From a virus (lineage: Duplodnaviria; Heunggongvirae; Uroviricota; Caudoviricetes), in the IMG/VR virus record IMGVR_UViG_648276647_000017, positions 1-19,160 of that record: a stretch of DNA of 19,160 bases. One strand, given 5' to 3'. The notes beneath the pieces were generated by a model. That model saw nothing but the letters and a program-made list of their open reading frames with translations, made no database searches and was not told the origin of the DNA. A program made the position numbers and the translations under genes. Each line of letters begins with the position of its first letter. The stretch's first letter is position 1. Shown one piece after another: positions 283 to 19,160 of the stretch.

Positions 283-284
283 AC

Positions 285-857
285 TTAGCCCATCATTTTT
301 CTATACGCCTCTGCAGCCTGCTCCGGCGTTAAGTTGGTAATTTCTGTTCTGACGGGTCCTCCATCAGCGCCAGTCACTTCATTTTTGACGTTGTCTTTAA
401 ACGCCTGAACAGAAACATGACGCCCAAGCAACTCAAGGTTTTTTACCTTATCAGGCCACTTAATCTTTTTAAGGATCCCGACCATTTCTCTGTCATCTCC
501 TCGCCCTTCAAACATTTCAGCGAGGTTAAATCCACTCAGGTACCGACGCCACGATTCCGGCCACGCAGACAGAGGCTTAATACTTAAATCGTCCTCCAGG
601 ATGTCAGCCACATCGAGCCTGTCGATCTCAACCAGTCGCATCAGCACATAATTCGCATCAATGCCCAGTTGATCAATACGCTCCTGCTTTAGCTCGTTGA
701 TGCGGGCACGTATCTCAGGTTTACCGTATAGTTCAGCCCCCGTAACATGTGCTCGCCTGGAGGCGTAGCCTGCGCGAATAGCTGCTTGTGTAGCATTAAG
801 ATCGACAAGAAACTCCCGACAAAACACCTCGTGTTTTGCTTTCAGCTCCTTAGTCAT
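285..857 (-). CDS. Phage terminase small subunit (Terminase_2 / P27-like family)
   Basis: 190-aa ORF; N-terminus [49 protein letters not shown] matches the conserved [18 protein letters not shown] signature of this family; sits directly upstream of the large terminase start. Confidence 0.85.
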
Positions 858-1903: not shown

Positions 1904-1906
1904 GAA

Positions 1907-2266: not shown

Positions 2267-2349
2267 TACGGGGTGTTGTTGAAAGGCGGGCCCTGCGTAT
2301 ACGCCCGTAGGATTGGGTTATGAGCCGTCCTTCGGTGGGCCCTGAATAC

Positions 2350-2372
2350 AAAAAAAGTTCGCCATAGCGAAC
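2350..2372 (-). terminator. Candidate intrinsic terminator in the late leader (tR'-like), between Q and the holin
   Basis: On the minus strand: GTTCGC-tatg-GCGAAC (6-bp perfect stem, 4-nt loop) followed immediately by TTTTTTT; about 85 bp upstream of the holin start, the position expected for the terminator that Q-modified polymerase reads through. Confidence 0.45.
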
Positions 2373-2651
2373 CCTGTTAAATTTGTTAAAAAAGGAAGTT
2401 ATTTAACATAATGTACGTTATAGGAACCACACGATCACCGCTCGCAATAGATTTGCGATGAAAGGCCTATTTAATCAACTTAAGTGGTCCAGAATGACGA
2501 AATTCGAGTGAATAAAAGGTGCATAAAAAAGGGCAAAAACTGCATAGCGTTTTTTCGCGACGAAAACCCTGTTTTATTAACTTTTACTGAGAATAGAGCA
2601 TTAAAAAAGCCCCAATGATTTGGAGCTCTTCGTTGAGGTCAGAAATTCAAC

Positions 2652-3086
2652 TCATACCAGCGTAGCGCAGTTTTTGCGTAGCGCACTAATACTTTTTTCA
2701 TCCCTTTGAATTTCGACCTCAGGATCCATCTGAAGGCTCACACCCAGCATGCAGAGACACCCCTCAATGAATCCCTCTGCTACCTGCAACTGCTGGCGGA
2801 TAAATCCTTCAGAACAGCGACGCCGCCGCCCTATCTCACGTTTGCTTAACCCGTAGACGTAGTACAGCATAATGACGTCCAGTTCCTCAGGCTTACGGAC
2901 CTGCTGCAGCCGACAGACGCAAGCATCGATAATCAGGCCATCGTCGTCACAGCAACTCAGCCTGCCAGGCGAGCTGCTGACTACCAGCCCTTTAAATCCC
3001 GCCGCTATTGGAGCCCAGCTCACTGTGGTGTTGCTATCGGCAGCCCATCCACCCCAGCGCTCTAAAACCTGTTGAATATTACGCAT
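2652..3086 (-). CDS. Q: Late-gene antitermination protein Q
   Basis: 144-aa ORF positioned between the replication gene and the lysis cassette; MRNIQQVLERWGGWAA...IAAGFKGL...CCDDDGLIID...YYVYGLS...IEGCLCM resembles the lambdoid Q family (Cys-rich zinc region, conserved ERWG and AAGFKGL). Confidence 0.8.
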   Translation of the reverse strand: MRNIQQVLERWGGWAADSNTTVSWAPIAAGFKGLVVSSSPGRLSCCDDDGLIIDACVCRLQQVRKPEELDVIMLYYVYGLSKREIGRRRRCSEGFIRQQLQVAEGFIEGCLCMLGVSLQMDPEVEIQRDEKSISALRKNCATLV

Positions 3087-3216
3087 AGCTCTGACCTCTA
3101 CGTTTTGCTACGAAAAATTTTTCTGAGAACTACGTCTGTTTATCCGTGGGTGTGGATAACGCAGTTCCGATCCGCATATTGCATGTATCAACATGCAAAA
3201 AGTTGCTAATTCGGAG

Positions 3217-3403
3217 TGGAACCACCTGCCCCCACCTGGAACCACCTTTTCCTAACCTTTCCCTCAATCGACTTATATATATATGGGGTTTCTAGTAGAA
3301 AGGCGGTTCCAGTGGTTCCAGTAGTTCCGCCCCGCTTGCCACAAGGTCTGCAAGGTGGAACCACCTTCTCTTCTAGGTGGTTCCGCGTGGTTCCAGCGGT
3401 TCC
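3217..3403. repeat. Iteron array flanking an AT-rich element; candidate origin of replication
   Basis: Nine copies of the hexamer GGAACC/GGTTCC in both orientations (3218, 3238, 3306, 3314, degenerate 3323, 3357, 3379, 3389, 3398), mostly within extended TGGAACCACC-type units, flanking the run cgacTTATATATATATGG (3269-3286). The array overlaps the 3' end of the primase gene and lies upstream of Q. Confidence 0.5.
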
Positions 3404-5559
3404 CAAACCTTGCATTTTTTCCCCCCAATTCGCCTTTGGGCACGCTTATACCCGCAATTTTGCAAAACATTACTAATTCGCATTTCTTCGCGTTTTCCGA
3501 TGCGGTCAGGATTTAGCCCAATCGCATCACGCAAAACATCACTTGCGCGTAAAAATTCGCAATTTCGCGGAAGTTCATTAGTCATCAGGTCGGGCGTGTC
3601 GAGCCATTTCTCTACCGTTTCAAGCCAAGCATCCTTGATGGTGTACTGTTCATGGACACTCGCTGCCAGTTGTTCAGCCTCACGGAACTGGATACCCCCC
3701 AGACGCTGAAACACCTCACGAGCCTCAGCCCAAAGTAAAAGAAGATCTCTTTTTATCGCTTTCACGTCGACTTTCGACACTTCCACGGGGAGCCAGCGAC
3801 GGTTACCAGTCTTGTCCGCAAGGAATTCGTCCTCATTAGTGGTACCAACGAACACCAGGCGACGAGGAAACTGGGTGGCGAACTCCCGGTATTTCGGGAT
3901 CCAGTTTTCGTGAGTACGCGTCACAAACGCTTTGATTGACTCCAGCTCTTTGGTATTAAGTCCGCGCAGTTCACCAATCTCTGCCACCAGCCGACCACGC
4001 ATTTTTCGAGCGAGATCATCGTCTTTTTCGGCAAAAGAGATTTCAGTAAAAAACGCAGGATCAGGGCTCAGTGCCTCCACTCCGGAAGACTTACCGCAGC
4101 CCTGCGGACCAACGAGGATCGGCACCATATCCGCTTTGATGCCTGGCTCCAGTACTCGCCCCGCCAACGCGGTCCACATGTACATAGACACCGCACGGGT
4201 ATAAGGCGTGTCGGCGGTACCGAAGTGCGTATGGTAGAAACATTCGATGCGCGGCACGCCATCCCACTCCAGTCCGTTCAGCCAGGTGATCGCTGAATCG
4301 AATGGTTGTTCATCGGCTGCAAGTAACACCACATCGCGAATAAGTTCACGACCAACAGGTTTAAATCCCCGCTTTTCCATCGTGATGCGCAGGCGCGCAT
4401 AATCCGCATCGGTGAAGGCCTGCCACTGGCCGGAGCCTGCCTGGGCGAACATGATTTCGTCACGGAACTGGTCAAAGCGAATATCGATGTCCACGAAGTC
4501 AGGACGCACAACGGCTTTTGCCGCGTTGCTGATGGTGGCCTCGATGCGGCCCCATTTGTCGCGCTCGAACGCCGGCAGCGGTAACGGCTCGGCCACTTCG
4601 GTGCTGGTCAGGTCTTCGAAATCGTCGTTGCGGATCCCGATGGCATTAAGGAAATCGCCGTCGTCGCGGTGCGCGCAGCTGGCGTGCAGGCACTTAAAAT
4701 GCCCCTGCTCAAAGCCCGCGGTACCGCCCGGGAAGTAAACCGTGCTCGTCGGGTCGCCGCCGGTGCTGTGGCCGTCTTCGAACGGGCAACGGATATAGCG
4801 CTCGCCGTTCGCGCCGTCCAGCAGCGTCCAGCCATTGGCATCGAGATATTCCGCCGTATCATCCGTGGCGCCGGGCGTGAAGGTTGAACGGTCGCGCATC
4901 TTCGTGCTGCCCGCTTCGGTGGTGACCGACACAGGTAACTGTTCCGCCAGTCGCTGCCACAGCGTTTCAAGCTGCTCACCAGTAATAGCCGGAGGTTCAT
5001 CCGGCAAACCGCCGTCCCATTCGATACGCGCGCCGCTGCTGTGCGTACCGCAGGCAACAAACTGCTGCCCGTTCGCCAGCAGCTCGATAATCCCCATATC
5101 GCCCGCCAGACGGTGGATGCGCTTACGGAAATCGCCGTCAACGGCCAGCAGGTACAGGCATTTGTTACTGTTGGCGCGCCAGCGACGCGGCGGCAGCTCA
5201 CCAAGCAGCTGCACCAGCGTTTTGCGAATATCGGCCTGGATATCTTCGTCTTCGCTGTCGCAGTCCAGCGCCAGCCAGCCATGGCCTGTACGCACGCAGA
5301 TGCCATAATCCGGTTCATTCGACCAGCGGGCAAAATCATGCTCAGTAACAACATGACTGGTCCATTGAGCAATACCGGTGACCTGACGGTCCCGGTTATA
5401 GCGACTTGGCGTCTTACCCAGCGCTTTCAGTTTACTGTCAGGGGATATAGTCGCACCGGGGTTACATACAACTGGGAGAAGATGAGCAGTTCGCCCCAAT
5501 ACCAGGTCGAAATGAAACCACTCATCAGGCGTAGCTCCCCATGGTTTGCTATCAGACAT
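3373..5559 (-). CDS. Bifunctional primase-polymerase / primase-helicase (PrimPol N-terminal domain plus P4-alpha/D5-like P-loop NTPase C-terminal domain)
   Basis: 728-aa ORF; Walker A motif GPQGCGKSS in the C-terminal half, N-terminal region typical of archaeo-eukaryotic-type primase-polymerases of phages and plasmids; AAGG Shine-Dalgarno 7 nt before the ATG; first replication gene downstream of the cro-like gene. Confidence 0.85.
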   Translation of the reverse strand: MSDSKPWGATPDEWFHFDLVLGRTAHLLPVVCNPGATISPDSKLKALGKTPSRYNRDRQVTGIAQWTSHVVTEHDFARWSNEPDYGICVRTGHGWLALDCDSEDEDIQADIRKTLVQLLGELPPRRWRANSNKCLYLLAVDGDFRKRIHRLAGDMGIIELLANGQQFVACGTHSSGARIEWDGGLPDEPPAITGEQLETLWQRLAEQLPVSVTTEAGSTKMRDRSTFTPGATDDTAEYLDANGWTLLDGANGERYIRCPFEDGHSTGGDPTSTVYFPGGTAGFEQGHFKCLHASCAHRDDGDFLNAIGIRNDDFEDLTSTEVAEPLPLPAFERDKWGRIEATISNAAKAVVRPDFVDIDIRFDQFRDEIMFAQAGSGQWQAFTDADYARLRITMEKRGFKPVGRELIRDVVLLAADEQPFDSAITWLNGLEWDGVPRIECFYHTHFGTADTPYTRAVSMYMWTALAGRVLEPGIKADMVPILVGPQGCGKSSGVEALSPDPAFFTEISFAEKDDDLARKMRGRLVAEIGELRGLNTKELESIKAFVTRTHENWIPKYREFATQFPRRLVFVGTTNEDEFLADKTGNRRWLPVEVSKVDVKAIKRDLLLLWAEAREVFQRLGGIQFREAEQLAASVHEQYTIKDAWLETVEKWLDTPDLMTNELPRNCEFLRASDVLRDAIGLNPDRIGKREEMRISNVLQNCGYKRAQRRIGGKKCKVWEPLEPRGTT

Positions 5560-5734
5560 GGGTTAAGCCTTTTTGTTTGACTACATTTTTTTGCTCCAAA
5601 ATCTTTTCAAGTTGAAGAGCTCTTAGCTCTGGGATTTCCTCCCCCCATTGAGATACGGCTCCTTTGGAAACCTTCAATAGTCTCGCTAGTTTCGCTTTAC
5701 TTCCTGCAAGCTCAATTGCTTCTGCTTTTTTCAT
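5552..5734 (-). CDS. Cro-like HTH regulator (Cro/CI-type, YdaS-like)
   Basis: Small ORF divergent from the CI-type repressor; helix-turn-helix region LAGSKAKLARLLKVSKGAVSQW. The track begins at a GTG (5743); the ATG at 5734 (MKKAEAIELAG...) is my preferred start. The 3' end overlaps the primase start. Confidence 0.6.
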   Translation of the reverse strand: MKKAEAIELAGSKAKLARLLKVSKGAVSQWGEEIPELRALQLEKILEQKNVVKQKGLTHV

Positions 5735-5743
5735 ACCCGTCAC

Positions 5744-5847
5744 CCAGGAAATATATGGTTATATGAGGTTAAGAAAACTAAACCCACAAGTCAAGAAAGC
5801 GATACCCTGATTAAGTTAAGCTAACTAAACTATATGAGGGTAAAACC
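5744..5847. promoter_or_regulatory. Immunity-region operator/promoter block between the divergent cro-like and CI genes
   Basis: Two copies of a 16-bp near-palindromic motif, GTTAAGAAAACTAAAC (5768-5783) and GTTAAGCTAACTAAAC (5815-5830), 14/16 identical. On the minus strand a TTGACT -35 (5794..5789) with a 17-nt spacer to TAACCT (5771..5766) overlaps the first copy, consistent with a CI-repressed cro promoter. Confidence 0.5.
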
Positions 5848-6540
5848 ATGATTAATGATCGTATTCGCGAGGCTCGTCGCAATGTCCACCTAACGCAGGA
5901 TGCGCTTGCTAAACGTATTGGTCTAACTAAAGCCACGATTTCACAATGGGAATCCGGAAACACCACACCTAACGGGAAAAATCTTATAAATCTGGCCGAA
6001 GCATTGAACGTTTCTCCAGAGTGGCTACTTTCAGGCAAAACAAGCGATACCAAAGAAATACATTCTAATGCACAAGTTGAGGGGGGGTTTTCTGTATGGG
6101 ACTCATCAACGCCATTAGAGGATGATGAAGTGGAAATACCGTTCTATCAGGAAATTGAACTATCTGCCGGTAATGGTACTTATGTTGATATAGATCGAAT
6201 GGGATGTAAGTTAAGATTCGCCCGTTCAACGTTGCGCAAAGCAGGTGTTGACGTAAATTGTGCGGCTTGTGTCAGCATCCACGGCAACAGCATGGAACCG
6301 GTATTACCAGATGGCGCTGTCGTCGGCATAGATACATCAAAAACAGGTGTAAAAGATGGTCAAATGTACGCTATAGACCAAGACGGATTACTTCGTGTCA
6401 AACTATTGTACCGTCTCCCAAGCGGACTCCGGATACGCTCTTTCAATAGGGATGAATACGCAGACGAAGAGTATTTTAATCAAGAGGCTAATAAAATCAG
6501 GATTATAGGCCAAGTATTTTGGTACTCCGTTCTGCTCTGA
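5848..6540 (+). CDS. cI: CI-type prophage repressor (N-terminal HTH_XRE, C-terminal S24 LexA-like autopeptidase)
   Basis: 230-aa ORF; HTH (LTQDALAKRIGLTKATISQWESG), candidate Ala-Gly cleavage site in ELSAGNG, catalytic Ser in GNSMEP and Lys in LRVKLL; GAGGG Shine-Dalgarno 7 nt upstream; divergent from the cro-like gene. Confidence 0.9.
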   Translation: MINDRIREARRNVHLTQDALAKRIGLTKATISQWESGNTTPNGKNLINLAEALNVSPEWLLSGKTSDTKEIHSNAQVEGGFSVWDSSTPLEDDEVEIPFYQEIELSAGNGTYVDIDRMGCKLRFARSTLRKAGVDVNCAACVSIHGNSMEPVLPDGAVVGIDTSKTGVKDGQMYAIDQDGLLRVKLLYRLPSGLRIRSFNRDEYADEEYFNQEANKIRIIGQVFWYSVLL

Positions 6541-6564
6541 GCGTAAATTCACTCTATACCACAT

Positions 6565-6591
6565 GCCCGCTTCCTAAGCGGGCTTTTCTTT
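6565..6591 (+). terminator. Intrinsic terminator downstream of the CI gene
   Basis: GCCCGCTT-cct-AAGCGGGC (perfect 8-bp stem, 3-nt loop) followed by TTTTCTTT, 25 bp after the CI stop codon. Confidence 0.65.
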
Positions 6592-6629
6592 ACCTATCCG
6601 AAAAAGTTCACTTTTCTTAACTACAACAC

Positions 6630-6685
6630 TTGACTTTGTGAGTTTAGAGGTCTTAACTATATGCGTGAAGTTAAGATATCTATAC
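6630..6685 (+). promoter_or_regulatory. Candidate CI-controlled early promoter (pL-equivalent) with two further operator-like motif copies
   Basis: TTGACT at 6630-6635 with a weak -10 (TTAACT, 6653-6658) at 17-nt spacing; operator-like copies GTTTAGAGGTCTTAAC (6642-6657) and GTTAAGATATCTATAC (6670-6685) share the GTTAAG-N4-CT(A/T)AAC pattern of the cI/cro intergenic sites. Confidence 0.3.
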
Positions 6686-6852
6686 ACAGATATTTAAACT
6701 ACAAGTCGAACGGCGCGACTCTAAACCATGCGTCGGGACCGTGGCGGGACAGGATGTCGGCAATACGGGTCAGTAAGTTCCCTTTGGGGTGCGGCGAAGC
6801 ACTGGGTCGAAGCCGCCGAACCACCAAAGTGAACTGAATGAGGAATCACAAG

Positions 6853-7047
6853 ATGCCTAAATATAAACTGGTTAATGACCTGGCTATCGGCGACAAAATT
6901 GAATTCAGTGGAAAACGGATAATGGAGGTTACCCAAAAAACTGACCGCGACCAGCATAACGTTAGCCTGACTCTAGTTAACAAACATACAGGTTCTGCGA
7001 CTAATACTTGTTTTAACCGAATGGATACCGTCGTCCTTCCCCCATAA
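6853..7047 (+). CDS. Hypothetical small protein (64 aa), stand-alone unit between the immunity region and the early operon
   Basis: ATG at 6853 (MPKYKLVNDLAIGDKIEF...) with a GAGGAA Shine-Dalgarno about 6 nt upstream; the track ORF starts earlier at 6838. Bracketed by the CI terminator upstream and a hairpin plus T-tract downstream. No family recognised. Confidence 0.45.
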   Translation: MPKYKLVNDLAIGDKIEFSGKRIMEVTQKTDRDQHNVSLTLVNKHTGSATNTCFNRMDTVVLPP

Positions 7048-7089
7048 CAATCCTCTGAATCCTCCATGTAATTGCTGTGTGTAGTCTTT

Positions 7090-7117
7090 GCCCGCCTCAA
7101 GTGACGGGCTTTTTTAT
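7090..7117 (+). terminator. Candidate intrinsic terminator after the small ORF
   Basis: GCCCGCC-tcaagt-GACGGGC (7-bp stem with one mismatch) followed by TTTTTTAT. Confidence 0.45.
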
Positions 7118-7141
7118 GTCTGAAAGCGCACTCGCAACAGC

Positions 7142-7324
7142 GTGCTCCCCGATATGAAAAAAGGAATACAACCGATGAAACCTGAACACATCCATCGACT
7201 GACGGGGCGCGATGTTCTCCGTTATCGCCGTAAAAACTTCGATTTGATGACCGGTCTGGCCGTTGCCACTGCGCTCGGTCTGATCATCACTTTCATTCTC
7301 CTTGTAGCGAGGCCCACAGTATGA
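7142..7324 (+). CDS. Hypothetical small tail-anchored membrane protein
   Basis: ORF ending in a single hydrophobic helix (LMTGLAVATALGLIITFILLV); the track start at 7142 is a GTG, alternative ATGs at 7154 and 7175, the latter with an AAGGAA Shine-Dalgarno (49-aa product); stop overlaps the start of the next gene (7321). Confidence 0.4.
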   Translation: MLPDMKKGIQPMKPEHIHRLTGRDVLRYRRKNFDLMTGLAVATALGLIITFILLVARPTV

Positions 7325-8223
7325 GTTTAGAAACCAGTCTAGAACTTAATAATCAACTTCTGGCACAACATAATGCGCTGCTTGAACGTCTTATCCGCAC
7401 AATGGCATCAGGCATTGTTATGCATCCTGACACGATTTCACGAGTGCAGGAATGTCGGGATACAGCAACTGAAACTGAAAATATGTCAGCGGCAATGACA
7501 CTGGATGATCTGGAGTTCAGCGACGTTATCGCACTGGCTGGTTTCTACCCGGTAGCCACCCCTATCACAGAAGACATGCTGCAACGTGCTGTTGCCTACC
7601 GTGATGCTGAAGGCGATAAACGAGTAGTTCAGATTGATGCTCTCGACAGCGCATTGCAGGGCGTCAAACGAGCCAGGGCGCTGCTTAAACCTGCTCTCCT
7701 GGACCTGTCCCGTAACATCCTTAAGTTCTGGGACGACCTGCCAACCATCGGCGAGCGACGTGCTTTTGCCGAGCAGCTACTTGATGCACCTGCGGATGGG
7801 CGTGATGAAGTTAAGCCGAAAAAGGCCAGTAACAAGGATGGAGAACGCACGGGGCCGTTTTACGTCAAAAATGTATCCGGCACAGCAGCCAGTGAACTCC
7901 ACACCTTACGCAAGTTGAACGAGATGCTGAAAAAAGGCCATATCGAGATCAACCGTGTTGAGTACCTTCAGCTGCAGGAAGAATTTGCACGCAGAGACGC
8001 AGCAAATTCCAGCCAGAATAATGACGCCAAAGATGACCATACAATTGATTTCGCGGCACTACGCAAACAAGCTGAAGGGTTGATCCTCCAGTTAGCAAAA
8101 GGGGGTTACCGGGCAGAAGCTATTGCAATTCTGGAAAAACAGGGAGCCAGGAAACTTGGTGAAGTAACGGATGAAAATCTCGCTGAAGTAATCACCCTGG
8201 CTGAAAAAGCACTGGAGGGTTAA
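7321..8223 (+). CDS. Hypothetical phage protein (300 aa), first large gene of the plus-strand early operon
   Basis: Long ORF, translationally coupled to the neighbours on both sides (4-bp overlap upstream, 2-bp gap downstream); acidic and helical, no recognisable catalytic motif. Confidence 0.55.
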
Positions 8224-8225
8224 TC

Positions 8226-9527
8226 ATGCCAGACGTTCATGCACAACTTTCTCCATCATCAGCGCATCGATGGATGCGCTGCCCAGGAAGTCTGGCGCTG
8301 GAGGCCACACAACCGGATAAAGAAACAACTTTTGCAATCGAGGGCACTGCAGCGCACGCGCTTGCTGAAAAAGTTCTACGAAACAGGCAAAGCCACCCGG
8401 AACACTACGCCGGATGCAATGTTTCTATGTTTCTCGGCTCATACCCCCTTCGCGAAAATCCTGATGATACATCTGGCCCACAGGTGGATGATGAAATGGT
8501 CGAAGCCGTTGGCCGGTATGTTGATACGGTCTGGACTCTTGCACAGAATAATGAACTATTGGTTGAACAACGTGTTGATTTCTCACATATAACGGGTGTG
8601 GAAGAATCTTTCGGAACTGCCGACGGCATAATCATCGCTGGTAACGAATTACAAATCCACGACCTGAAATATGGCAAAGGCGTCCGCATTGATGCAGAAC
8701 AAAATGAGCAACTACAACTGTATGCTCTGGGTGCGCTTGAACAATTCAGCATGCTGTATGACTTTGAAACTGTAAGATTATTTATTCACCAACCAAGGCT
8801 CAACCACGTTTCAGAATGGTCGTTAACCGTACAGGAACTTCAGTCTTTCGGTGAACGGGCGCTGGAGGCCGCAACCAGTGCGATCCTTGTTCTCAATATT
8901 GCTGAATGCGAAGGCATTGAGACACTACCGCTGGAAAACTTCATACCTGGAGAAAAACAGTGCCGCTTCTGTAAAGCAAAAGCTATTTGCACTGCCCATA
9001 AAATGCAGCATTTACAAACAGCGGCCAGCGATTTTGAAGATCTGACAAAGCCTGTCAGCGAAATAATCACCAATGCCAGCGCACGTGTACCTCTGTTAAC
9101 CATTGAGCAGCTTGCGGAGATCTATAGTCAGGCCGACTTTATTGAATCCTGGCTAAAGGCAGTACGGGACCGGGTTCACAATGAACTCAATGCCGGACAT
9201 CCGGTACCGGGGTTTAAACTGGTAACAGGAAAACAAGGTAACCGGGCCTGGAGTGATGAAGAGGCAGCTCGCGCACTTCTGAAGGACCAGTTCAGGTACA
9301 AAACTGAAGAAGTATTCGACTTTAAACTTATTAGTCCCACAAAAGCCGAAAAACTTATCAAAAAGGCCAGTCCGCGCCGTTGGTCAAAAGTCGAGGCACT
9401 GATAACACGAGCTGATGGTAAACCAACCGTCGTTCCCGAGTCAGACCCACGCCCCGCACTCAATATCAACCCTGTAAATGATTTCGACGACGTATCCGAC
9501 GATACGCTAACCGCAGACCTCATCTGA
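8226..9527 (+). CDS. DUF2800-family PD-(D/E)XK nuclease (Cas4/RecB-like, with C-terminal Cys cluster)
   Basis: 433-aa ORF; N-terminal [15 protein letters not shown] signature, nuclease core around [20 protein letters not shown], Cys cluster [10 protein letters not shown]; typical partner of DUF2815 and phage PolA. Confidence 0.8.
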
Positions 9528-9542
9528 TTTAAGGAAATACCC

Positions 9543-10091
9543 ATGAAACTGAAGCTGAACAATGTTCGTCTGGCCTTCCCGTCTCTGTTTGAAGCTAAAA
9601 CTGTAAACGGCGAAGGCGATCCACGTTTCTCCGCAGTATTTTTAATGTCACCCAAACACCCACAACTGGAAGAAATCCGTAAAGCTATGAAGCAGGTAGC
9701 GAAGGAAAAATGGGGAGAGAAGTGGGAGCCCATTTATAACCAGCTGGAGAAAAAACTCAATCTGTGCCTGCATGATGGTGATGAAAAAGCAGAGTATGAA
9801 GGCTTCCCCGGTAATTTCTTCCTGAATGCTGCTAACAAAGCGCGCCCAGCTGTTCTTGATCGCGATCGTTCGCCACTTATTCAGGCTGACGGACGTCCCT
9901 ATGCAGGGTGCTATGTAAACGCCGTTATCGATATCTGGGCACAGGACAATAATTTCGGTAAACGCATTAATGCCTCACTCGGCGGAGTCCAGTTCCTGCG
10001 AGACGGCGATGCATTCGCTGGCGGCGGAGTGGCAAGCGCTGACGATTTCGACGATATCAGCGAAGGTGCTGATGCTGAAGCACTAATTTAA
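9543..10091 (+). CDS. DUF2815-family protein (phage single-strand DNA-binding-like)
   Basis: 182-aa ORF; MKLKLNNVRLAFPSLFEAK start and acidic C-terminal tail (DDFDDISEGADAEALI) characteristic of this SSB-like family; immediately follows the DUF2800-like nuclease. Confidence 0.75.
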   Translation: MKLKLNNVRLAFPSLFEAKTVNGEGDPRFSAVFLMSPKHPQLEEIRKAMKQVAKEKWGEKWEPIYNQLEKKLNLCLHDGDEKAEYEGFPGNFFLNAANKARPAVLDRDRSPLIQADGRPYAGCYVNAVIDIWAQDNNFGKRINASLGGVQFLRDGDAFAGGGVASADDFDDISEGADAEALI

Positions 10092-10142
10092 AAATATTCA
10101 TCCCCCAGCTACGTGCTGGGGTATCTCATGAGGGAAAGTATA

Positions 10143-10784
10143 ATGTCACAGCCCGTATTAACTAATCACCTTAAAACTCAAATCATCAATAACGCACTTG
10201 AGAAAGCGGGTATTCCCAAACGTAAATCAGCACTACGAGCTGCTCGTGTTGAATGGGCCGAACGTGTTCGGCTTGCAGCTATCGGGGGCGTAGAGAAAGA
10301 AGCTGAAATATTAAAAAATATAAAAAAGATTGAATCCATGGTCACAAAAGTCCCTGATTCATTAAAAACCAATAGTTCTTTAATTCGAAAAGATTGCTGC
10401 ATATATCTCAATCTGGCTGGAGCCAGAGCAAACATTTATTTCAATGGCAACTACAGAGGTTATGAATCAGGAGCCCCCGAGCATATTAATAAAATAGCAC
10501 CTGCAGAATTTACTCTACTTGGCGAAGATCCTCTGGTAACGGAGTTTTATAGCTTTGATGCTCTCTACACACAAATTAAAAGTGATGAAACCGAAATCAT
10601 ACAGAACGTCAGCGCGGCTCTAAATAAAGTTCGGACAGTAAAACGATTACTGGATGTATGGCCCGAAGCTAAAGAGCTGCTTCCAACAGACGCACCGCCA
10701 GTCCCTTTAGCACCAGCAGTACATCGAGAGACATTAAATGAAATGATAGGCCTTCCTACCAATACAGTGTCTGATACTCAATAA
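10143..10784 (+). CDS. Hypothetical protein (213 aa), AT-rich accessory gene
   Basis: ATG at 10143 (MSQPVLTNHL...) preceded by GAGGGA about 7 nt upstream; the track start at 10113 is a GTG lying inside a hairpin. Markedly AT-richer than the flanking replication genes; no family recognised. Confidence 0.5.
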   Translation: MSQPVLTNHLKTQIINNALEKAGIPKRKSALRAARVEWAERVRLAAIGGVEKEAEILKNIKKIESMVTKVPDSLKTNSSLIRKDCCIYLNLAGARANIYFNGNYRGYESGAPEHINKIAPAEFTLLGEDPLVTEFYSFDALYTQIKSDETEIIQNVSAALNKVRTVKRLLDVWPEAKELLPTDAPPVPLAPAVHRETLNEMIGLPTNTVSDTQ

Positions 10785-11467
10785 CAAGGGGGATGCTTAT
10801 TATATGATTTTGAACGTTTTACAATCTCGTTAAGAGGCGTGAAATCAAAATCTCTGAATAACACATCAGGATACTTCGCTCTTGCTTTATCCAGCAAACC
10901 AGTTAAAGTATTTTTTGTGTTACCCAACATTGTATTAACCGCCACTACATGTCTAATTTCTGGAGGTTTATCTATACCACCAGAAATTGCTTCATTAAGA
11001 ACCGACGCCAGTGGGGTTTGTCCCTTACTTGTTGAATCCCACAGCGTCATTAACAGACGAGCTGCGTCTATAAATAGCTTTTTGTCAGCATTTGGCTTGA
11101 CAGTAATACCGGAACTACCTGAGCCAGAACCGGAACGTTCTATTGCTGCACTGGCATCCGATTTCATAGGATTAAATAACGGAAGCTCTGTACAACCGAT
11201 ACGCCGAATGAAATCCTTTGCAACATCTCTACCACAGAAAAAAGCCCCTGTACAATTTTCATCAGAGCGTTTTTTAAATGAAAAACAATAGTACTGATCG
11301 GTTAACGGATAACCGGAATAACTGGTTTTAGTTTGTCCAGTAATAAGTTTCAGGTGTGCAACAGGCTGAATAATAAAATCCCGAACTATCGCATCTTTTA
11401 TGTCGTTACCACGGTGACAATAATATTCAGGTAATCCATTAGGCTGTCTCTTATTACCCACAGTCAT
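10778..11467 (-). CDS. Hypothetical protein (229 aa), AT-rich accessory gene antisense to the replication operon
   Basis: Minus-strand ORF whose 3' end overlaps the previous gene by 7 bp (convergent); Cys/aromatic-rich N-terminal domain (YYCHRGN...QYYCFSF...NCTGAFFCGRD), a GSGSGSSG linker and a distinct C-terminal domain; no family recognised. Confidence 0.55.
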   Translation of the reverse strand: MTVGNKRQPNGLPEYYCHRGNDIKDAIVRDFIIQPVAHLKLITGQTKTSYSGYPLTDQYYCFSFKKRSDENCTGAFFCGRDVAKDFIRRIGCTELPLFNPMKSDASAAIERSGSGSGSSGITVKPNADKKLFIDAARLLMTLWDSTSKGQTPLASVLNEAISGGIDKPPEIRHVVAVNTMLGNTKNTLTGLLDKARAKYPDVLFRDFDFTPLNEIVKRSKSYNKHPPCY

Positions 11468-11528
11468 TAGTTGTCTCCTTTAATTCATGATATCTAGCAT
11501 TTAACCATATACCATATGAGGATATTTT

Positions 11529-13592
11529 ATGTCCAATATACTATGGGGCGACCTGGAAACCTATTGTGACATTCCGATCAACAACGGTACCCATGCGTAT
11601 GCCGAAGGCGTTGAAGTGATGCTTTTCGCATGGGCTATCAACGACGGGCCAGTAAACGTGTGGGATATCACTGCCGGTGGTGGTATTCCACACGGCTTAT
11701 ACGAAGCAATCGCAGATCCTGAAACCCTGCTTTATTTCCATAACTCTCACTTCGACCGCACCGTTCTGCGTTATGCAATGCCGCGACTGGCACCGCCAGT
11801 CGAACGTTGGCGCGACACGATGGTGCAGGCGCTGGCGCACGGTCTCCCGGGGTCTCTGGGAGAACTCTGCGAAATACTAGGCGTCCCGCAAGACAAAGCG
11901 AAGGACAAAGAAGGTAAAGCGCTGATCCAGCTGTTCTGTAAGCCACGCCCGAAAAACAGCAAACTGCGTCGGGCCACCAGCAAAACCCACCCAGAAGAAT
12001 GGCGGCGCTTTGTTGCTTACGCCGGACTGGATATCGAGGCAATGCGCGAAGTCTGTAAACGTCTGCCGAAGTGGAATTATCAAGGGACAGAGCTGGCGCT
12101 CTGGCATCGTGATCAGCAGATCAACGACCGGGGCGTCTGCATGGACATGCAACTCGCGCGCGCTGCGATCGAAGCGGTAGACCAGGAGCAAAAGCGCCTG
12201 GCAAAGCGTACACAGGAAATGACTGATGGCGAAGTGCAGGCAGCCACACAACGAGACGCGTTGATTAAGCACATTGTTGAATCCTACGGTGTGGAGCTAC
12301 CAGACATGCAACGCAGTACTCTGGAACGTCGTATTGCCGACCCCGATTTACCATCTGCCGTGAAAGAACTGCTGGCTATCCGACTGCAGGCCAGTACTAC
12401 CAGCACCAGTAAATACAAGGCACTGATGAAAGGCGTAAGCCACGACGGGCGCTTACGCGGTACGCTACAGTTCTGCGGGGCGTCACGTACCGGTCGTTGG
12501 GCCGGACGGCTATTCCAGCCCCAGAATCTTCCCCGCCCTTCACTAAAACAGGAACAAATAGACGAAGGCATCGAAGCACTGAAAGCCGGATGTGCAGACC
12601 TGCTGTTTGACAATATCATGGAACTAACCAGTTCAGCGTTACGTGGCTGCATTATCGCGCCAACAGGCAAAAAAATGGTGGTAAGTGACTTGTCGAACAT
12701 TGAAGGCCGTATGCTGGCATGGCTGGCAGGAGAAGAATGGAAACTGAATGCATTCAGAGAGTACGACGCCGGAACGGGTCCGGACTTATATAAACTGGCG
12801 TATGCAAAAGCTTTCGATATTGCACCAGATGATGTTGATAAACACATGCGTCAGATCGGTAAAGTCATGGAACTCGGTCTGGGTTATGGTGGTGGTGTGT
12901 CGGCCTTCATCACTTTTGCACTGGTTTACGGTCTCGATCTCGACGAGCTGGCAAACGCTGCACTGCCAAACATTCCCCGCGATGTTATCCGCGAGGCGAA
13001 AAGCTGGTACGGCGAATCGGTTAAACGTAAGTCAACCTACGGCCTTTCTGAACGGGTATTTATCGCCTGCGACTCACTTAAACGTCTCTGGCGCCGGGCG
13101 CATCCCGCGACCTGTGATTTCTGGTACGAACTGGAGCGCACCGTCCGCACTGCAATCGCCACACCGCAAAAAACATTGTATTGCGGTTATCTTAAAATCC
13201 GCCGCGATGGCGCGTGGCTGCGCATACAGCTACCATCCGGACGCGCTGTATGCTACCCGTCTCCGGTTATCGAAAAAGGGAATATCACCTACATGGGTGT
13301 TAACTCTTATTCGCGTAAATGGCAACGACTCAAAACCTACGGCGGAAAGCTGGTGGAGAACGTCACCCAGGCGGCCGCCCGCGACGTTCTGGCCGGAAAC
13401 ATGCCGCTTATCGAAGATGCCGGTTACAGCATTGTGCTGACGGTACACGACGAGGTGATCACCGAATCACCTGACACAGAAGATTTCAACGATAAAGCGC
13501 TTTCCGCGCTTCTCTCCACTAACCCCGAATGGGCGCCCGATATCCCACTGAACGCTGGCGGTTTTGAGGCGTACCACTACCGTAAGGATTAA
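11529..13592 (+). CDS. Family A DNA polymerase (phage PolA with N-terminal 3'-5' exonuclease domain)
   Basis: 687-aa ORF; Exo I motif (WGDLETYCD), polymerase motif A ([19 protein letters not shown]), motif B ([16 protein letters not shown]), motif C (VLTVHDEV); GAGGA Shine-Dalgarno upstream. Confidence 0.9.
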
Positions 13593-13597
13593 CTCCT

Positions 13598-13813
13598 ATG
13601 TCATTTAAATACCGGGATAATCCACTTTATTACAGGGCTGCAAGGGAGGCTTTGCGACTTGAACAATCCGGCGAATATGACCGGGCAGCGAAGGTCTGGG
13701 CAAAAGCCAACCGCGAATCACATCACGAACTGAATCAGGAATGGAGTGAACGCCGGTCTGAATTTTGTCTGATGCAGAACATGCGCGAAAAGCGTAAGGC
13801 GGTCGAAGAATGA
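13598..13813 (+). CDS. Small regulator-like protein, possibly PerC/Pch family
   Basis: 71-aa ORF translationally coupled to PolA; AAREALRLEQSGEYDRAAKVW resembles the LE..GL.RRAA..W core that I recall for PerC-family activators. Family assignment is tentative. Confidence 0.45.
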   Translation: MSFKYRDNPLYYRAAREALRLEQSGEYDRAAKVWAKANRESHHELNQEWSERRSEFCLMQNMREKRKAVEE

Positions 13814-14070
13814 TGCGTAATACAGCGAAACTACAACTGGGGTTCTCCCCGCTATCCAAAAAGATCATGTTGGCAAAAATGCGCGATGTTGACGGCGGTC
13901 GCTTGCGAGTTGGCAATGACCCTGGGCGTGACGTAACGAACGAAGCCGCGCAGTTAGTTTGGCAACTGGTAATGGCAGAAGGCGGCGAAATTAGCTGGGG
14001 TCTTGATGATGGTAGCCAGATGGTACTGAGGGCTGAAAAGCAGGTGTGGAATGATGGCCTACGAACGTGA
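13810..14070 (+). CDS. Hypothetical small protein (86 aa)
   Basis: ORF with ATGA start/stop overlap to the upstream gene and a 20-bp overlap with the downstream VRR-NUC gene; no family recognised. Confidence 0.4.
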   Translation: MMRNTAKLQLGFSPLSKKIMLAKMRDVDGGRLRVGNDPGRDVTNEAAQLVWQLVMAEGGEISWGLDDGSQMVLRAEKQVWNDGLRT

Positions 14071-14347
14071 AAGCCTTATCGAAAAGCACCTCGTCGCCGA
14101 AGTGAAAAAGGCTGGCGGGGTCGCCTTTAAGTTCGTGTCACCCGGTCGCCGCTCGGTACCGGATCGCATTGTCCTGCTACCCGGCGGTCGCATCGTCTTT
14201 GTCGAATGCAAAGCGCCAGGCAAACCACCACGGCCTGACCAGTTACGCGAGCACGAACGGCTGCGTGCGCTGGGCTTTACCGTGGTGGTATTAGATAGCA
14301 AAAATCTGGAGGGGATATTGTGCGGGGAGCCTATTACAACGAAATAG
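14051..14347 (+). CDS. VRR-NUC domain nuclease (PD-(D/E)XK fold)
   Basis: 98-aa ORF; core PDRIVLLPGGRIVFVECKAPG supplies the D...E.K catalytic pattern typical of VRR-NUC proteins; AGGTG Shine-Dalgarno upstream. Confidence 0.8.
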   Translation: MMAYERESLIEKHLVAEVKKAGGVAFKFVSPGRRSVPDRIVLLPGGRIVFVECKAPGKPPRPDQLREHERLRALGFTVVVLDSKNLEGILCGEPITTK

Positions 14348-15348
14348 ACCCTAACGCAGCACAATGGCTGCGTAACCTTATTGCTGCAGGTCATATCGCC
14401 CCGGGTGAAGTTGATGAAAGGAGTATCGAAGATGTCGCACCAGACGACTTGCGCGGATTCACACAGTGCCATTTCTTCGCCGGGATCGGCGTCTGGTCTT
14501 ATGCTCTGCGTCTGGCCGGATGGCCGGATAACAAACCGGTCTGGACAGGAAGTTGCCCGTGCCAGCCTTTCAGCTCGGCTGGTAAAGGCGCTGGGTTTGA
14601 TGACGAGCGGCACCTATGGCCAGCACTATTCCACCTCATCAGCGAGCGACGCCCTAAGCTGGTATTTGGCGAACAGGTTGCGGGAGTCAATGCCTGGTTC
14701 GATCTTGTACAAACTGACGTGGAAGCAGTGGACTACGCCTTTGGGCTTGTCCCGTTTCCGGCTGCGGGCGTCGGTGCCCCGCATATCCGAGATAGAGCGT
14801 ATTGGGTGGCCGACGCCAGCGGCGAGCGATCACAGCGGTGGCGAAAGCGCCTCAATAGCATTGAGGAAGATGTCTGGAGATCGTCGACCGTCCGGCAACA
14901 CGCTACACAGCTCCCTGCGGAATTTTGCTCACCTGGCGGGGTGGTACACCCCAACCTGCAACACAAACCCACAGCCGGAGACAAAACGCGGTCTAGAAAC
15001 CTTAGCGGGACTATCCAGATTAGCGGGATGGCCGACAGTGACGACGATCGACAACAACCAAGTTCGTGCCGAGGGCGCAGCGGCCAATCATACCGAACGG
15101 GGAACGACCCTCGGCGGCGCTGCGAGAATCTGCGGCCCAATACGATTAACGGCTTCTGGGATGGTGCTGACTGGCTCCTCTGCCGGGATGGTCGCTGGCG
15201 GCCAGTTGAATCCGGCACATGCCCGTTGGCTAATGGGATTACCTCCAGAGTGGGACGACTGCGCGCCTACGGCAACGCGATAGTCGCACCAGCTGCCGCA
15301 ACATTCATCCGCTCGTTTATGGAATGCGCAGGATACGACCTTATTTAA
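14320..15348 (+). CDS. DNA cytosine-5 methyltransferase (Dcm-like), apparently split across two reading frames
   Basis: GTG start at 14320 with a strong GGAGGGG Shine-Dalgarno. Frame 1 carries C5-MTase motifs ([27 protein letters not shown]) and a C-terminal motif-X-like [12 protein letters not shown]. The overlapping frame-2 ORF (14381-15283) carries GWPTP-type repeats and [17 protein letters not shown]. Confidence 0.65.
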
Positions 15349-15665
15349 TGCCACTCACATCTGGCATGATACCGTCCAGAAGGTAATTGCTTATATACAA
15401 CGGAGCCGCCCATGGCATAAGTATAAGCATGAAGTTTTGTCCAGAAGTCCCCATAAACTAGTATTGGGGCTAAAAATTTTGGATCGCTAACCATAGATGT
15501 AGCAGGAAGCTCGAAACCTTTAGAAAGAATGTTTACCAGTGAAGGGTAATTTTCAAAATCAGTGCTATTCCCGCCCACCTCTAAAGCATCCAGTTCAAAG
15601 TCGAGCACTCCACCATTTTTGTAATACTCCGAAACAGTTAACCCTGATGTTAACAAAGTAGCCAT
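15345..15665 (-). CDS. Hypothetical protein (106 aa), AT-rich antisense gene between the methyltransferase and the helicase
   Basis: ATG at 15665 with a strong AGGAGG Shine-Dalgarno 8 nt upstream; AT-rich body; 3' end overlaps the methyltransferase stop by 4 bp (convergent); start codon 34 bp from the divergent SNF2 helicase start. Confidence 0.55.
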   Translation of the reverse strand: MATLLTSGLTVSEYYKNGGVLDFELDALEVGGNSTDFENYPSLVNILSKGFELPATSMVSDPKFLAPILVYGDFWTKLHAYTYAMGGSVVYKQLPSGRYHARCEWH

Positions 15666-15699
15666 TAAACAATCCTCCTGAATTTTAAAGGGTTACATT

Positions 15700-17094
15700 A
15701 TGCCCAAAGTTTTCACGCCTCGCCCCTACCAAGATCTAATTATCAACCACGAAATCGACATTCACCGCTGCAACATCTGGGCAGGGATGGGGATGGGTAA
15801 AACCGTAGCGACACTCACCACGCTGGAAGATCTTTTCATGGCGGGCTCAGAGACACAGCCCGCGCTGGTCCTCGCGCCGCTACGCGTTGCAGCAAGCACA
15901 TGGCCGGATGAAGCGCTGAAATGGGGGCATCTGCGCAATATCGAGGTGCAGCCGATTGTTGGTAACGCCAAAGCGCGCTCTGCAGCGCTGGCGAACAGCA
16001 ACGCGAGCGTGTTCACCATCAACTACGATAACCTTGTCTGGCTGGTTGAGGAATTGGGAGAACGATGGCCGTTCGGTACTGTCATTCCAGATGAAAGCAC
16101 CCGGCTAAAATCCTTCCGGCTGCGAGGTGGTGGTAAGCGCGCGGCGGCGCTGGGCAAAGTGGCGCATAAGTATGTCCAGCGCTGGATAAATCTCACCGGT
16201 ACGCCAGCACCGAACGGCCTGGTAGATTTGTGGGGACAATTGTGGTTTGTGGACCAGGGGCAACGTCTCGGGCGCACTTACGGCGCGTTTACCTCACGCT
16301 GGTTCAACTCGATACAGTTTCCGGGGCAGAGCTGGACCAAACTGGAGCCGTTTGCTCACTCACAGGCTGAAATACAGCGAGCGTTAGCCGATGTGACCCT
16401 CTCGCTGGATGCGGCCGACTGGTTCGATATCAAAGACCCCATCCATAACGTAATCCGCGTGGATATGCCGCCGAAGGCCCGTCAGCAGTATCGTGAAATG
16501 GAAAAGGAAATGTTCCTCGAGCTGAATGGCGAAGGCATCGAAGCACCAAACGCCGCGGCAAAGACACTGAAGTGTCTGCAAATCGCCAGTGGCGCAGTAT
16601 ACACAGACGACACCGGAAGTTGGTCAGAACTGCATGACACCAAACTGCAGGCGCTGGACAGCATACTGACCGAAGCAGCTGGCGCACCTGTGCTGGTTGC
16701 TTATCACTGGAAACACGATCTTGAACGCTTGCTTAAAGCATTCCCTCGCGGTCGTCACCTCGACCAAGATCCACAGACACTGCGCGACTGGAATTCCGGA
16801 AAGATTCCTGTTCTCTTTGCACACCCAGCCAGCGCGAGCCACGGTCTGAACATGCAGGACGGCGGAAACATACTGGTATTTTTCTCACACTGGTGGGACC
16901 TGGAGCAGTATCAGCAAATTATTGAACGTATCGGCCCCACCAGGCAGATACAGGCCGGACACAATCGTCCGGTATTTATTCACCACATTATTGCGGCCGA
17001 CACTATGGACGAAATGGTGATGGAGCGGCGCAACTCAAAACGAACAGTGCAGGACATCCTGCTCAATGCCATGAAAAAGAGAGGTATAGCATGA
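15700..17094 (+). CDS. SNF2-family (DEAD/DEAH-like) helicase
   Basis: 464-aa ORF; PRPYQ Q-motif, Walker A GMGKT, DEST box (IPDESTRLKS), motif III-like LTGTPAPNG; AAGGG Shine-Dalgarno upstream. Confidence 0.85.
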   Translation: MPKVFTPRPYQDLIINHEIDIHRCNIWAGMGMGKTVATLTTLEDLFMAGSETQPALVLAPLRVAASTWPDEALKWGHLRNIEVQPIVGNAKARSAALANSNASVFTINYDNLVWLVEELGERWPFGTVIPDESTRLKSFRLRGGGKRAAALGKVAHKYVQRWINLTGTPAPNGLVDLWGQLWFVDQGQRLGRTYGAFTSRWFNSIQFPGQSWTKLEPFAHSQAEIQRALADVTLSLDAADWFDIKDPIHNVIRVDMPPKARQQYREMEKEMFLELNGEGIEAPNAAAKTLKCLQIASGAVYTDDTGSWSELHDTKLQALDSILTEAAGAPVLVAYHWKHDLERLLKAFPRGRHLDQDPQTLRDWNSGKIPVLFAHPASASHGLNMQDGGNILVFFSHWWDLEQYQQIIERIGPTRQIQAGHNRPVFIHHIIAADTMDEMVMERRNSKRTVQDILLNAMKKRGIA

Positions 17095-17291
17095 GCGAGA
17101 AACCCGACGATTTACTCACCCCAGATGAAGTATGCCAAAAGTTAGGTATTACACAGAAAACGCTATGTGAGTGGAATATTAAGCATCGTCATCGGGCTAT
17201 CCTGGCACCAATTCGTTTCAGTGCAAAAGTAGTTCGTTATGAGCGCCGAAATGTCGACGCTTTTATTCAAAAATGTCGCAGCCAGTATTAA
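17091..17291 (+). CDS. AlpA/excisionase-like HTH protein (candidate Xis)
   Basis: 66-aa ORF; LLTPDEVCQKLGITQKTLCEW helix-turn-helix typical of AlpA-family prophage regulators and excisionases; lies next to the integrase with a 4-bp convergent overlap. Confidence 0.65.
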   Translation: MSEKPDDLLTPDEVCQKLGITQKTLCEWNIKHRHRAILAPIRFSAKVVRYERRNVDAFIQKCRSQY

Positions 17292-18685: not shown

Positions 18686-18890
18686 TCTCAATCCTTATCT
18701 GCGTAGGCGCAGAAAACAAGCTCACACATACAAGTCTTTTCTACGGGACAAAATGCAATGTGTTGCGGTTTTGTGTTGCTGGACTGAGTTTATCAAGGTT
18801 AAATACACTGGATCAACATACAGTAAGTTAATGACAGTAAAGCATACAAACTCGATACAACTTACTGATTTTAAAATGATTTAACGGTAA

Positions 18891-19160
<270 letters not shown>

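Follow-up and report, generated by a model that had tools for sequence, protein, structure and literature searches.

Early region of an Escherichia coli prophage with a predicted split replication module of the APSE-1/BPP-1 type, a candidate origin and variable accessory slots

The DNA described here is a stretch of 19,160 nucleotides from a tailed phage (IMG/VR record IMGVR_UViG_648276647_000017, positions 1 to 19,160; hereafter the window), which is the integrase-proximal half of an Escherichia coli prophage and adjoins the host gene yfhL. Its predicted replication genes lie on both sides of a repressor switch, with one primase-helicase gene on the cro side and, on the cI side, genes for a DUF2800 nuclease, a single-stranded DNA-binding protein (SSB), a family-A DNA polymerase (PolA), a VRR-NUC nuclease and an SNF2-family protein. 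An earlier note on this DNA had picked out this arrangement and assigned domains to its proteins, and all of those assignments were supported when searched with Pfam and PHROG profiles. The genes and sites on which the argument depends are these:

285..857, minus strand: terS (Terminase_2), profile match
2354..2375, minus strand: terminator-like hairpin with T-run (tR'-like) between Q and the holin gene, -10 kcal/mol, z -3.4
2652..3086, minus strand: Q-family late antiterminator (PF06530, E 1.1e-50), 59% identical to P5 of APSE-1
3205..3405, no strand: candidate replication origin, found by iteron search, overlapping the last ~10 codons of the primase-helicase gene
3373..5559, minus strand: primase-helicase of 728 residues (VapE PF05272, E 2.3e-60)
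5552..5743, minus strand: Cro-like repressor (P22_Cro PF14549, E 2.6e-16)
5768-5783 and 5815-5830, with a degenerate third site at 5790-5805, no strand: OR-type operators GTTAAG-N4-CTAAAC between cro and cI, found by motif search
5848..6540, plus strand: CI repressor with HTH_3 and Peptidase_S24 domains (Pfam), Ala-Gly at ELSAGNG and Ser at GNSMEP
6565..6583, plus strand: intrinsic terminator after cI, -14.1 kcal/mol, z -5.4
6606, 6642 and 6670 (span 6606..6685), no strand: OL-type operators directly past the cI terminator, overlapping a PL-like promoter with -35 TTGACT (6630-6635)
7089..7115, plus strand: terminator-like hairpin with T6 between PL and the replication genes, -9.8 kcal/mol, z -2.2
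7321..8223, plus strand: conserved protein of 300 residues (PHROG 6784, no assigned function), always directly upstream of DUF2800
8226..9527, plus strand: DUF2800 PD-(D/E)XK (Cas4/RecB-like) predicted exonuclease (Pfam, E 4.5e-110)
9543..10091, plus strand: predicted DUF2815/Enc34/gp2.5-like ssDNA-binding and annealing protein (PF10991, E 7.6e-44)
11529..13592, plus strand: family-A DNA polymerase PolA (PF00476, E 1.5e-13; PHROG 17, E 1.6e-125)
14051..14347, plus strand: VRR-NUC nuclease (PHROG 93, E 5.6e-32), with D38 and E52-C-K54 forming the D...ExK motif
15700..17094, plus strand: SNF2-family ATPase/translocase (PF00176, E 5.7e-13; PHROG 62, E 1.4e-158)

The control regions on either side of cI share an operator, a 16-bp pseudo-palindrome GTTAAG-N4-CTAAAC, which has 10 strand-matches in the whole window where 1.2 would be expected, a number that was reached in none of 200 shuffles. 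The occurrence of the same operators in both regions supports two divergent early operons under CI control, and given this lambda-type OR/OL logic it is fair to describe the replication machinery, as the earlier note had done, as distributed over both early operons, with the CI-side module at the red/gam position in place of the lambda recombination genes. Besides CI, Cro and the operators repeated at two divergent promoters the window has a lambdoid late unit of Q with holin, lysozyme and Rz, the last three genes being encoded on the minus strand between the 2354-2375 hairpin and terS. Of the lambdoid immunity, lysis and packaging backbone that had been proposed, the immunity and lysis parts stand, whilst packaging is only loosely lambdoid since TerS is a Terminase_2 protein and not Nu1; the late genes of a close relative, L001, encode TerL, a DUF1073 protein and a head morphogenesis protein.

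On the cro side the primase-helicase is the sole protein gene between cro and Q, as had been claimed for this operon. Its VapE domain was found directly and a Prim-Pol domain (PF09250) when the N-terminal 227 residues were scanned alone (E 1.5e-10, 42 bits against a cutoff of 22.8). The protein carries the DxD motif of an archaeo-eukaryotic primase (AEP) at residues 100-102, a Cys/His zinc motif at 258-295 and the Walker A (484-491), Walker B and motif C of a VapE/D5-type superfamily 3 (SF3) helicase, which together make it an AEP PrimPol joined to an SF3 helicase, and its C-terminal tail is putatively DNA-binding.

A non-coding stretch of 290 bp separates the primase-helicase gene from Q, and it is here that the candidate origin lies. 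Nine GGAACCAC-type iterons (at most one mismatch) are found in both orientations within 3218-3403, starting at 3218, 3238, 3303, 3312, 3321, 3357, 3377, 3387 and 3396, and they stand on both sides of an AT-rich core, TTATATATATAT, at ~3274-3288; nine in 186 bp compares with ~0.13 expected, when scaled from a chance expectation of 13.5 matches in the whole window. An iteron array is present 3' of the primase-helicase gene in every relative examined, with an iteron sequence that differs by relative: GGTGACG in 606R2, CTGTACCAAC in three E. coli prophages, AGACAACC in YeP4, GTAACAACC in APSE-1, AACGAGGCAA in BPP-1 and ACAGGACAC in Xfas53. The order of iterons, AT-rich core and inverted iterons, which was read directly in 606R2, YeP4, APSE-1 and BPP-1 and is also that of the window, is proposed here as a feature of the group and is not a published criterion.

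The most informative comparison is with a sister prophage, L007, which is identical to the window on either side of 3172-3443. Inside this segment AT core and spacing are retained but each copy of the iteron has another sequence in the same register, for example TGGAACCACC in the window and TGTACCAGCC in L007, or GGTTCCAGT and TGGTACAGT, and the two primase-helicases, though 94-100% identical elsewhere, have only 46% identity over their last ~28 residues. By analogy with lambda O and its iterons, 3172-3443 looks like an origin/initiator specificity cassette.

On the CI side the PHROG matches of the core proteins (1e-32 to 1e-158) are stronger than those to Pfam, and both sets of profiles support the DUF2800, DUF2815, PolA, C5-cytosine methyltransferase and SNF2 proteins that had been assigned to this operon. 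The DUF2800 protein has D133, D146-L-K148, a QxxxY motif and four cysteines (C19, C246, C249 and C255) in a Cas4-like C...CxxCx5C arrangement, and gave no meaningful match when compared with PDB sequences. The SSB matches its profile over the full length, is similar to the solved Enc34 SSB and ends in an acidic tail, in line with the gp2.5-like group of SSBs and single-strand annealing proteins (SSAPs). This tail is shared with the nuclease, as DUF2800 (9465-9527) and SSB (10026-10091) both end in an acidic motif, DDF(D/E)D(V/I)(S/T)...L(I/V), that is also found in BPP-1, YeP4, APSE-1 and Xfas53. Such a tail on both proteins would point to one partner on which they dock, in the manner of the T7 gp2.5 tail, and judging from the shared DDFDD(V/I)S...LI sequence this docking is probable for the nuclease and SSB.

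PolA retains Exo I, II and III (D9/E11, N72..D76 and Y164..D168) together with polymerase motifs A (D387), B (K445/Y453) and C (H640-D-E), and with Exo I beginning at residue 7 it has no 5' nuclease domain. The VRR-NUC protein falls below the gathering score of PF08774 (18.0 bits against a cutoff of 23.8), so that Pfam alone would not have placed it; the assignment made in the earlier note is borne out by PHROG 93, by the D...ExK motif and by matches to the solved small nucleases 4qbo (E 1.8e-14) and 4qbn (E 2.4e-11), which we take to be stand-alone VRR-NUC proteins. In the SNF2 protein both the SNF2-related N-lobe and Helicase_C are present, with Walker A GKT and DExx. Directly upstream of these genes, the 300-residue protein has no Pfam, NCBIfam or PADLOC match and no fold match, its AlphaFold2 (AF2) model being mediocre (pLDDT, the predicted local distance difference test score, 65.6). 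Among the matches listed all 120 of its homologues are unnamed or "hypothetical", and its C-terminal ~58 residues are kept in YeP4 and in P53 of APSE-1.

Relatives of PolA occur in 1,726 phage records, and the closest outside E. coli are those of Yersinia phage YeP4 (74%), Bordetella phage BPP-1 (67%), the APSE phages of Hamiltonella (61-65%), and Acinetobacter 4316, Burkholderia BcepC6B and Xylella Xfas53 (56-57%). When BPP-1, YeP4, APSE-1 and Xfas53 were searched with tblastn the five core proteins were found in each of them, in an unchanged order and with 44-76% identity, the individual ranges being 57-74% for PolA, 58-75% for SNF2, 55-66% for SSB, 44-59% for DUF2800 and 51-76% for VRR-NUC. 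The layout that is shared can be written as terS-lysis-Q-primase-cro / cI-...-DUF2800-SSB-PolA-VRR-NUC-SNF2-xis-int. As in these four phages, the window has a divergent repressor/cro switch, a primase-helicase as the first large gene past cro and, on the repressor side, a homologous series from DUF2800 to xis and int, with the integrase inverted in the window. It had been suggested that such a mosaic is worth documenting, and as a claim to novelty this does not hold, as the identical arrangement in APSE-1, BPP-1, Xfas53 and YeP4 is already in print (PMC8579659, PMC8093625). Modules 1-2 of APSE have been described as syntenic with BPP-1, BcepC6B, Xfas53 and YeP4 (PMC8579659), the block of genes has been labelled "early Bordetella-Bcep-Xylella-like" in the literature, and a "duf2800-gp2.5-polA module" has been named that is also present in phages of Gram-negative bacteria (PMC8093625).

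With a probability of roughly three in four, we would assign the window to a temperate E. coli phage with an early region of the APSE-1/BPP-1/Xfas53/BcepC6B/YeP4 type, joined to a lambda-like Q/S-R-Rz lysis cassette and carrying a split replisome that is largely independent of the host. The anatomy of this was read from the sequence and the mechanism is what we infer from it. CI, as an SOS-cleavable S24 repressor, would close the two divergent promoters through GTTAAG-N4-CTAAAC at about three sites in OR and three in OL, and its cleavage at induction would derepress PR and PL. The PR transcript would yield Cro and then the single PrimPol-zinc-VapE/D5 SF3 initiator, running on through the origin into Q; the C-terminal tail of the initiator would bind the arrays of inverted iterons that adjoin its gene on the 3' side, and the protein would open the AT-rich core, encircle the DNA as a helicase and prime it. 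The PL transcript would supply the rest of the replisome, a proofreading family-A polymerase and a gp2.5-like SSB/annealing protein, together with a recombination back-up of DUF2800 exonuclease, VRR-NUC junction resolvase and an SNF2 translocase that may remodel forks and branches. Initiation would then sit at the position of O, P and ori in lambda and elongation and recombination at that of red and gam, with the accessory genes of the PL operon (Nmad5, methyltransferases and antisense morons, and SIR2 or TIR-like genes in relatives) falling outside the replisome.

Several points weigh against this interpretation, the first being that three of its elements are inferred, namely binding of the iterons by the primase-helicase, replicative use of PolA and the make-up of the operons. 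Transcription from PL would meet the terminator-like hairpin at 7089-7115 before it reached the replication genes, and no N-like antiterminator was found; the ~600-bp leader past PL (region 6540-7320) is left without annotation in RefSeq and holds small open reading frames (ORFs) of 58, 69 and 60 residues, for which no family match was obtained at 6661-7324, nor was any known RNA found there with Rfam, and the fold of the 466-nt leader RNA is no more stable than that of shuffled sequence (z -0.9). The PL operon is moreover interrupted by two antisense genes, it includes the conserved 300-residue protein without an assigned role, and no clamp, clamp loader or processivity factor was identified. 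Finally, the change at the C-terminus of the primase-helicase could passively reflect an ORF that overlaps a swapped origin segment.

The best of the alternatives is that the primase-helicase and its origin alone replicate the phage with the host DNA polymerase III (Pol III), which is how phage P4 and the Staphylococcus aureus pathogenicity islands (SaPIs) replicate, and that the PL genes serve recombination, repair and gap-filling as an equivalent of lambda Red. The red/gam position of the PL genes would fit this, as would the match of VRR-NUC to the solved nucleases 4qbo and 4qbn, the lack of any processivity factor found for PolA, and the resemblance of DUF2800 and a gp2.5-like annealing protein to an exonuclease/SSAP pair, Gp2.5 having been classed as an SSAP family (PMC8093625). 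However, PolA retains every exonuclease and polymerase catalytic motif, ssb genes are absent from the neighbourhood of gp2.5 so that the module has no other ssb gene (PMC8093625), and lytic phages such as the Kagunavirus phiEc3 likewise have PolA, SSB, nuclease and SNF2 together with a primase-helicase. As lytic phages with the same gene set would be expected to need a replisome of their own, replication by Pol III is made less likely, and it would seem an improbable account of the window.

Returning to the split replisome, its core on the CI side is interrupted by three slots whose contents vary between near-identical E. coli prophages, the first content given on each of the following lines being that of the window:

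10092-11528, slot A, between SSB and PolA: Nmad5 and the antisense ORF of 229 residues; or Nmad5 and a protein of 89 residues; or SIR2; or another antisense ORF
13593-14050, slot B, between PolA and VRR-NUC: ANR and DUF7446; or ANR and DUF4406; or a class I methyltransferase; or a TIR-like gene
14348-15699, slot C, between VRR-NUC and SNF2: C5-methyltransferase and the antisense ORF of 106 residues; or other antisense genes

The genes that occupy these slots in the window are as follows:

10113..10784 (RefSeq start ~10143), plus strand: Nmad5 (PF18757, E 1.7e-54), slot A
10778..11467, minus strand: antisense orphan ORF of 229 residues, a moron in a low-GC (~40%) stretch, slot A
13598..13813, plus strand: ANR/PerC-like small protein directly past PolA, slot B
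13810..14070, plus strand: DUF7446 protein, slot B
14320..15348, plus strand: C5-cytosine methyltransferase-family protein (PF00145, E 1.7e-12, a partial match; PHROG 363, E 5e-91), slot C
15345..15665, minus strand: antisense orphan ORF of 106 residues, slot C

Since slot contents differ between prophages that are otherwise nearly identical, Nmad5 and the methyltransferase are accessory genes and not parts of the replisome, and the three slots look like a hotspot for defence and counter-defence genes. Nmad5 was considered as a core replisome part and rejected, being absent from 606R2 and L007 and present in Shiga toxin (Stx)-converting phages and in other temperate phages of enterobacteria (SPN3UB and HK542 among them), where its presence alone, gene context aside, was recorded. 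In the only functional paper on it that was found, a point mutation in Nmad5 is linked to escape from Tmn defence (PMC11846954). The ANR-like protein is conserved in YeP4 (63%) and APSE-1 (50%). For the ORF of 229 residues there is no match in Pfam, PHROG, NCBIfam or PADLOC and no tblastn match among 50,697 phage records, and for that of 106 residues none in Pfam or PADLOC; both are labelled hypothetical proteins in RefSeq relatives. The composition of the window is strongly mosaic, with ~59-61% GC in the N-terminal half of the primase (4000-5500) as against ~40% in the Nmad5/antisense-ORF slot (10000-11500).

The predicted methyltransferase has C5 motifs I, II, IV (PCQ), VI (ENV), VIII (RxR) and X (GNA), all of them invariant in 41 homologues out of a family with 8,000 members or more. 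The order of the motifs is unusual, with a II-like YYNEID at residues 5-10 followed by motif I, FFAGIG, at 52-57 and motif IV at 79-85, with only 25 residues between I and PCQ, and this arrangement too is invariant in all 41. The order is therefore apparently permuted, possibly by a local sequence permutation, although in its AF2 model the N-domain is confident and has a Rossmann-like strand set that matches M.HhaI and DNMT2. There is no in-frame upstream extension, the GTG start being preceded by a Shine-Dalgarno sequence GGAGGGG. A methyltransferase lacking motif I was also considered and was rejected, as FFAGIG aligns with motif I of M.HhaI.

The same genes bear on two further alternatives. 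One is that the phage DNA is modified through Nmad5, DUF7446 and the unusual methyltransferase, the phage having its own polymerase in order to incorporate or tolerate modified bases; Nmad5 does lie upstream of the polymerase gene in an M6-like thymidine-hypermodification cassette (PMC9476957), and relatives of the window have DUF4406 or a class I S-adenosylmethionine-dependent methyltransferase in the same slot. Of the genes that such a cassette comprises, its rSAM/PLP enzymes included, only Nmad5 is present, however, and it stands alone, Pfam scans having found no hydroxymethylase, aGPT-Pplase, nucleotide kinase or radical-SAM genes; induced phages that are otherwise 97% identical lack Nmad5, Stx phages, SPN3UB and HK542 also have it, and the core module is unchanged with or without Nmad5, DUF7446 and the methyltransferase, all of which makes a role in base modification very improbable. 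It is just as improbable that SNF2, the C5-methyltransferase and the nucleases form a prophage-borne defence or anti-defence system of DISARM, Dpd or Zorya type and have no part in replication, for although PADLOC gives partial matches of SNF2 to DpdE, ZorD and DrmD (E 1e-11 to 1e-7) and of the methyltransferase to DruM, and relatives have SIR2 or TIR-like genes in the same operon, these matches are limited to the generic SNF2/methyltransferase core of much larger proteins, with no full-length DrmD, DpdE or ZorD and no partner genes, and the position of SNF2 and VRR-NUC is invariant across all relatives whilst the methyltransferase comes and goes.

Beyond the split replisome we would tentatively put forward a joint reading of the origin and the slots, one that could well be correct but on which we would not yet rely. 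The ~270 bp of 3172-3443 and the last ~28 codons of the primase-helicase gene may form an exchangeable origin/initiator-specificity cassette, read by a short C-terminal wing of the PrimPol-SF3 helicase and with at least three alleles (GGAACCAC, GTACCA(A/G)C and GGTGACG) among otherwise near-identical E. coli prophages, and the three operon slots may be a defence/counter-defence hotspot in which the orphan antisense ORFs (229 and 106 residues) and the motif-permuted C5-methyltransferase family are players.

The remaining features of the window mark the boundary of the prophage:

17091..17291, plus strand: HTH_17 excisionase-like protein (Pfam)
17288..18691, minus strand: tyrosine integrase (profile match and the annotation of a relative)
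18900..19160, plus strand: host ferredoxin gene yfhL, the prophage boundary

Scans of the whole window for tRNAs and with Rfam found nothing. Of 5,426 complete E. coli genomes, 50 have at least 80% of the window at a single place, and the best of these matches, with 99.4% identity, bears the same gene names in its annotation; three induced phages in GenBank (vB_EcoM-606R2, 611R5 and 689R2) match it with 97% DNA identity over 49%. RefSeq and GenBank already contain the window prophage itself, annotated in this way, and literature searches on the vB_EcoM-606R2 phages, and on BPP-1 and APSE-1 with primase, found no paper. With the layout published and the prophage in public records, the arrangement noticed in the earlier note is correct but already known, and is of little value as a discovery, a self-sufficient module and a split arrangement being textbook for the APSE/BPP-1 group. 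The features that go beyond that note are Nmad5, the 300-residue protein, the ANR and DUF7446 genes, the two antisense ORFs and the candidate origin, and the details that the present analysis adds are the candidate origin, the three variable slots, the tail shared by nuclease and SSB and the motif order of the methyltransferase. There is also value for annotation, in that the yfhL-adjacent lineage of E. coli prophages belongs with an APSE/BPP-1-type early region and not with lambda, and that an origin can be placed beside the primase-helicase gene. The co-variation of iterons and C-terminal tail would provide a simple handle on origin specificity in VapE-type initiators, and the accessory slots are places in which to seek defence and counter-defence genes.

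The closest known systems include phages 606R2, 611R5 and 689R2 (ON470579 etc.) and the yfhL-adjacent E. coli prophages, which are of the same lineage and have core proteins that are 92-100% identical; the three phages differ from the window in having other immunity alleles, another primase-helicase/iteron allele (GGTGACG) and a TIR-like gene, and in lacking Nmad5 and the C5-methyltransferase. The closest sequenced phage outside E. coli is YeP4 (primase 73%, PolA 74%, SNF2 74% and VRR-NUC 76%), and both it and BPP-1 (NC_005357) have an identical split layout, again without Nmad5 and without the C5-methyltransferase. BPP-1 differs further in that it has an adenine methylase between cro and primase, a far diverged primase (27% over a fragment) and, elsewhere, a diversity-generating retroelement (DGR) cassette.

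In APSE-1 (Hamiltonella, NC_000935), the layout of which has been known since 1999, one arm, divergent from the repressor, consists of a cro-like gene, the primase-helicase P3, the Q-like P5, lysis and packaging, and the other of P53, exonuclease P51, gp2.5-like P50, PolA P45, nuclease P44, helicase P41, xis and int. An iteron/AT-rich structure is again found 3' of P3, and identities to the window are 75% for SNF2, 69% for VRR-NUC, 61% for PolA and 59% for Q. Unlike the window, APSE-1 has P22-like podovirus late genes, a toxin cassette, an HNH insertion in PolA, the iteron GTAACAACC and an integrase that is co-directional with the module.

The duf2800-gp2.5-polA module also occurs in Guernseyvirinae (e.g. 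Kagunavirus phiEc3), Dhillonvirus, and staphylococcal and streptococcal phages. The lytic phiEc3 has, like the window, a PD-(D/E)XK nuclease, SSB, PolA, VRR-NUC, a methyltransferase of the same family and SNF2, but its primase-helicase gene precedes the module on the same strand and not on the opposite arm, and identities are only 23-52%. The replisome of T7 consists of the PolA gp5, the SSB gp2.5 and the primase-helicase gp4; T7 and the window have in common a family-A polymerase together with an SSB of gp2.5 type ending in an acidic tail, whereas the window differs in its SF3 VapE/D5-type helicase rather than one of superfamily 4 (SF4), in that no thioredoxin-binding loop was identified, and in being temperate.

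With lambda the window shares a divergent CI/Cro switch, multiple OR and OL operators, a terminator past cI, a Q-dependent late region with holin, lysozyme and Rz, and, on the PR side, an initiator with an origin (in the window a candidate one) in which iteron and initiator specificity would change together. It is unlike lambda in its predicted initiation by a PrimPol-SF3 helicase and in encoding its own polymerase; no homologues of O, P, cII, N, red or gam were found, and no ORF has an O/P or Red/Gam match in Pfam or PHROG. A one-protein primase-helicase initiator beside an iteron/AT-rich origin, as predicted for the window, is also found in the alpha protein of P4 and the Rep of SaPIs. Judged from its sequence, the window prophage is an ordinary member of the described APSE-1/BPP-1 group.

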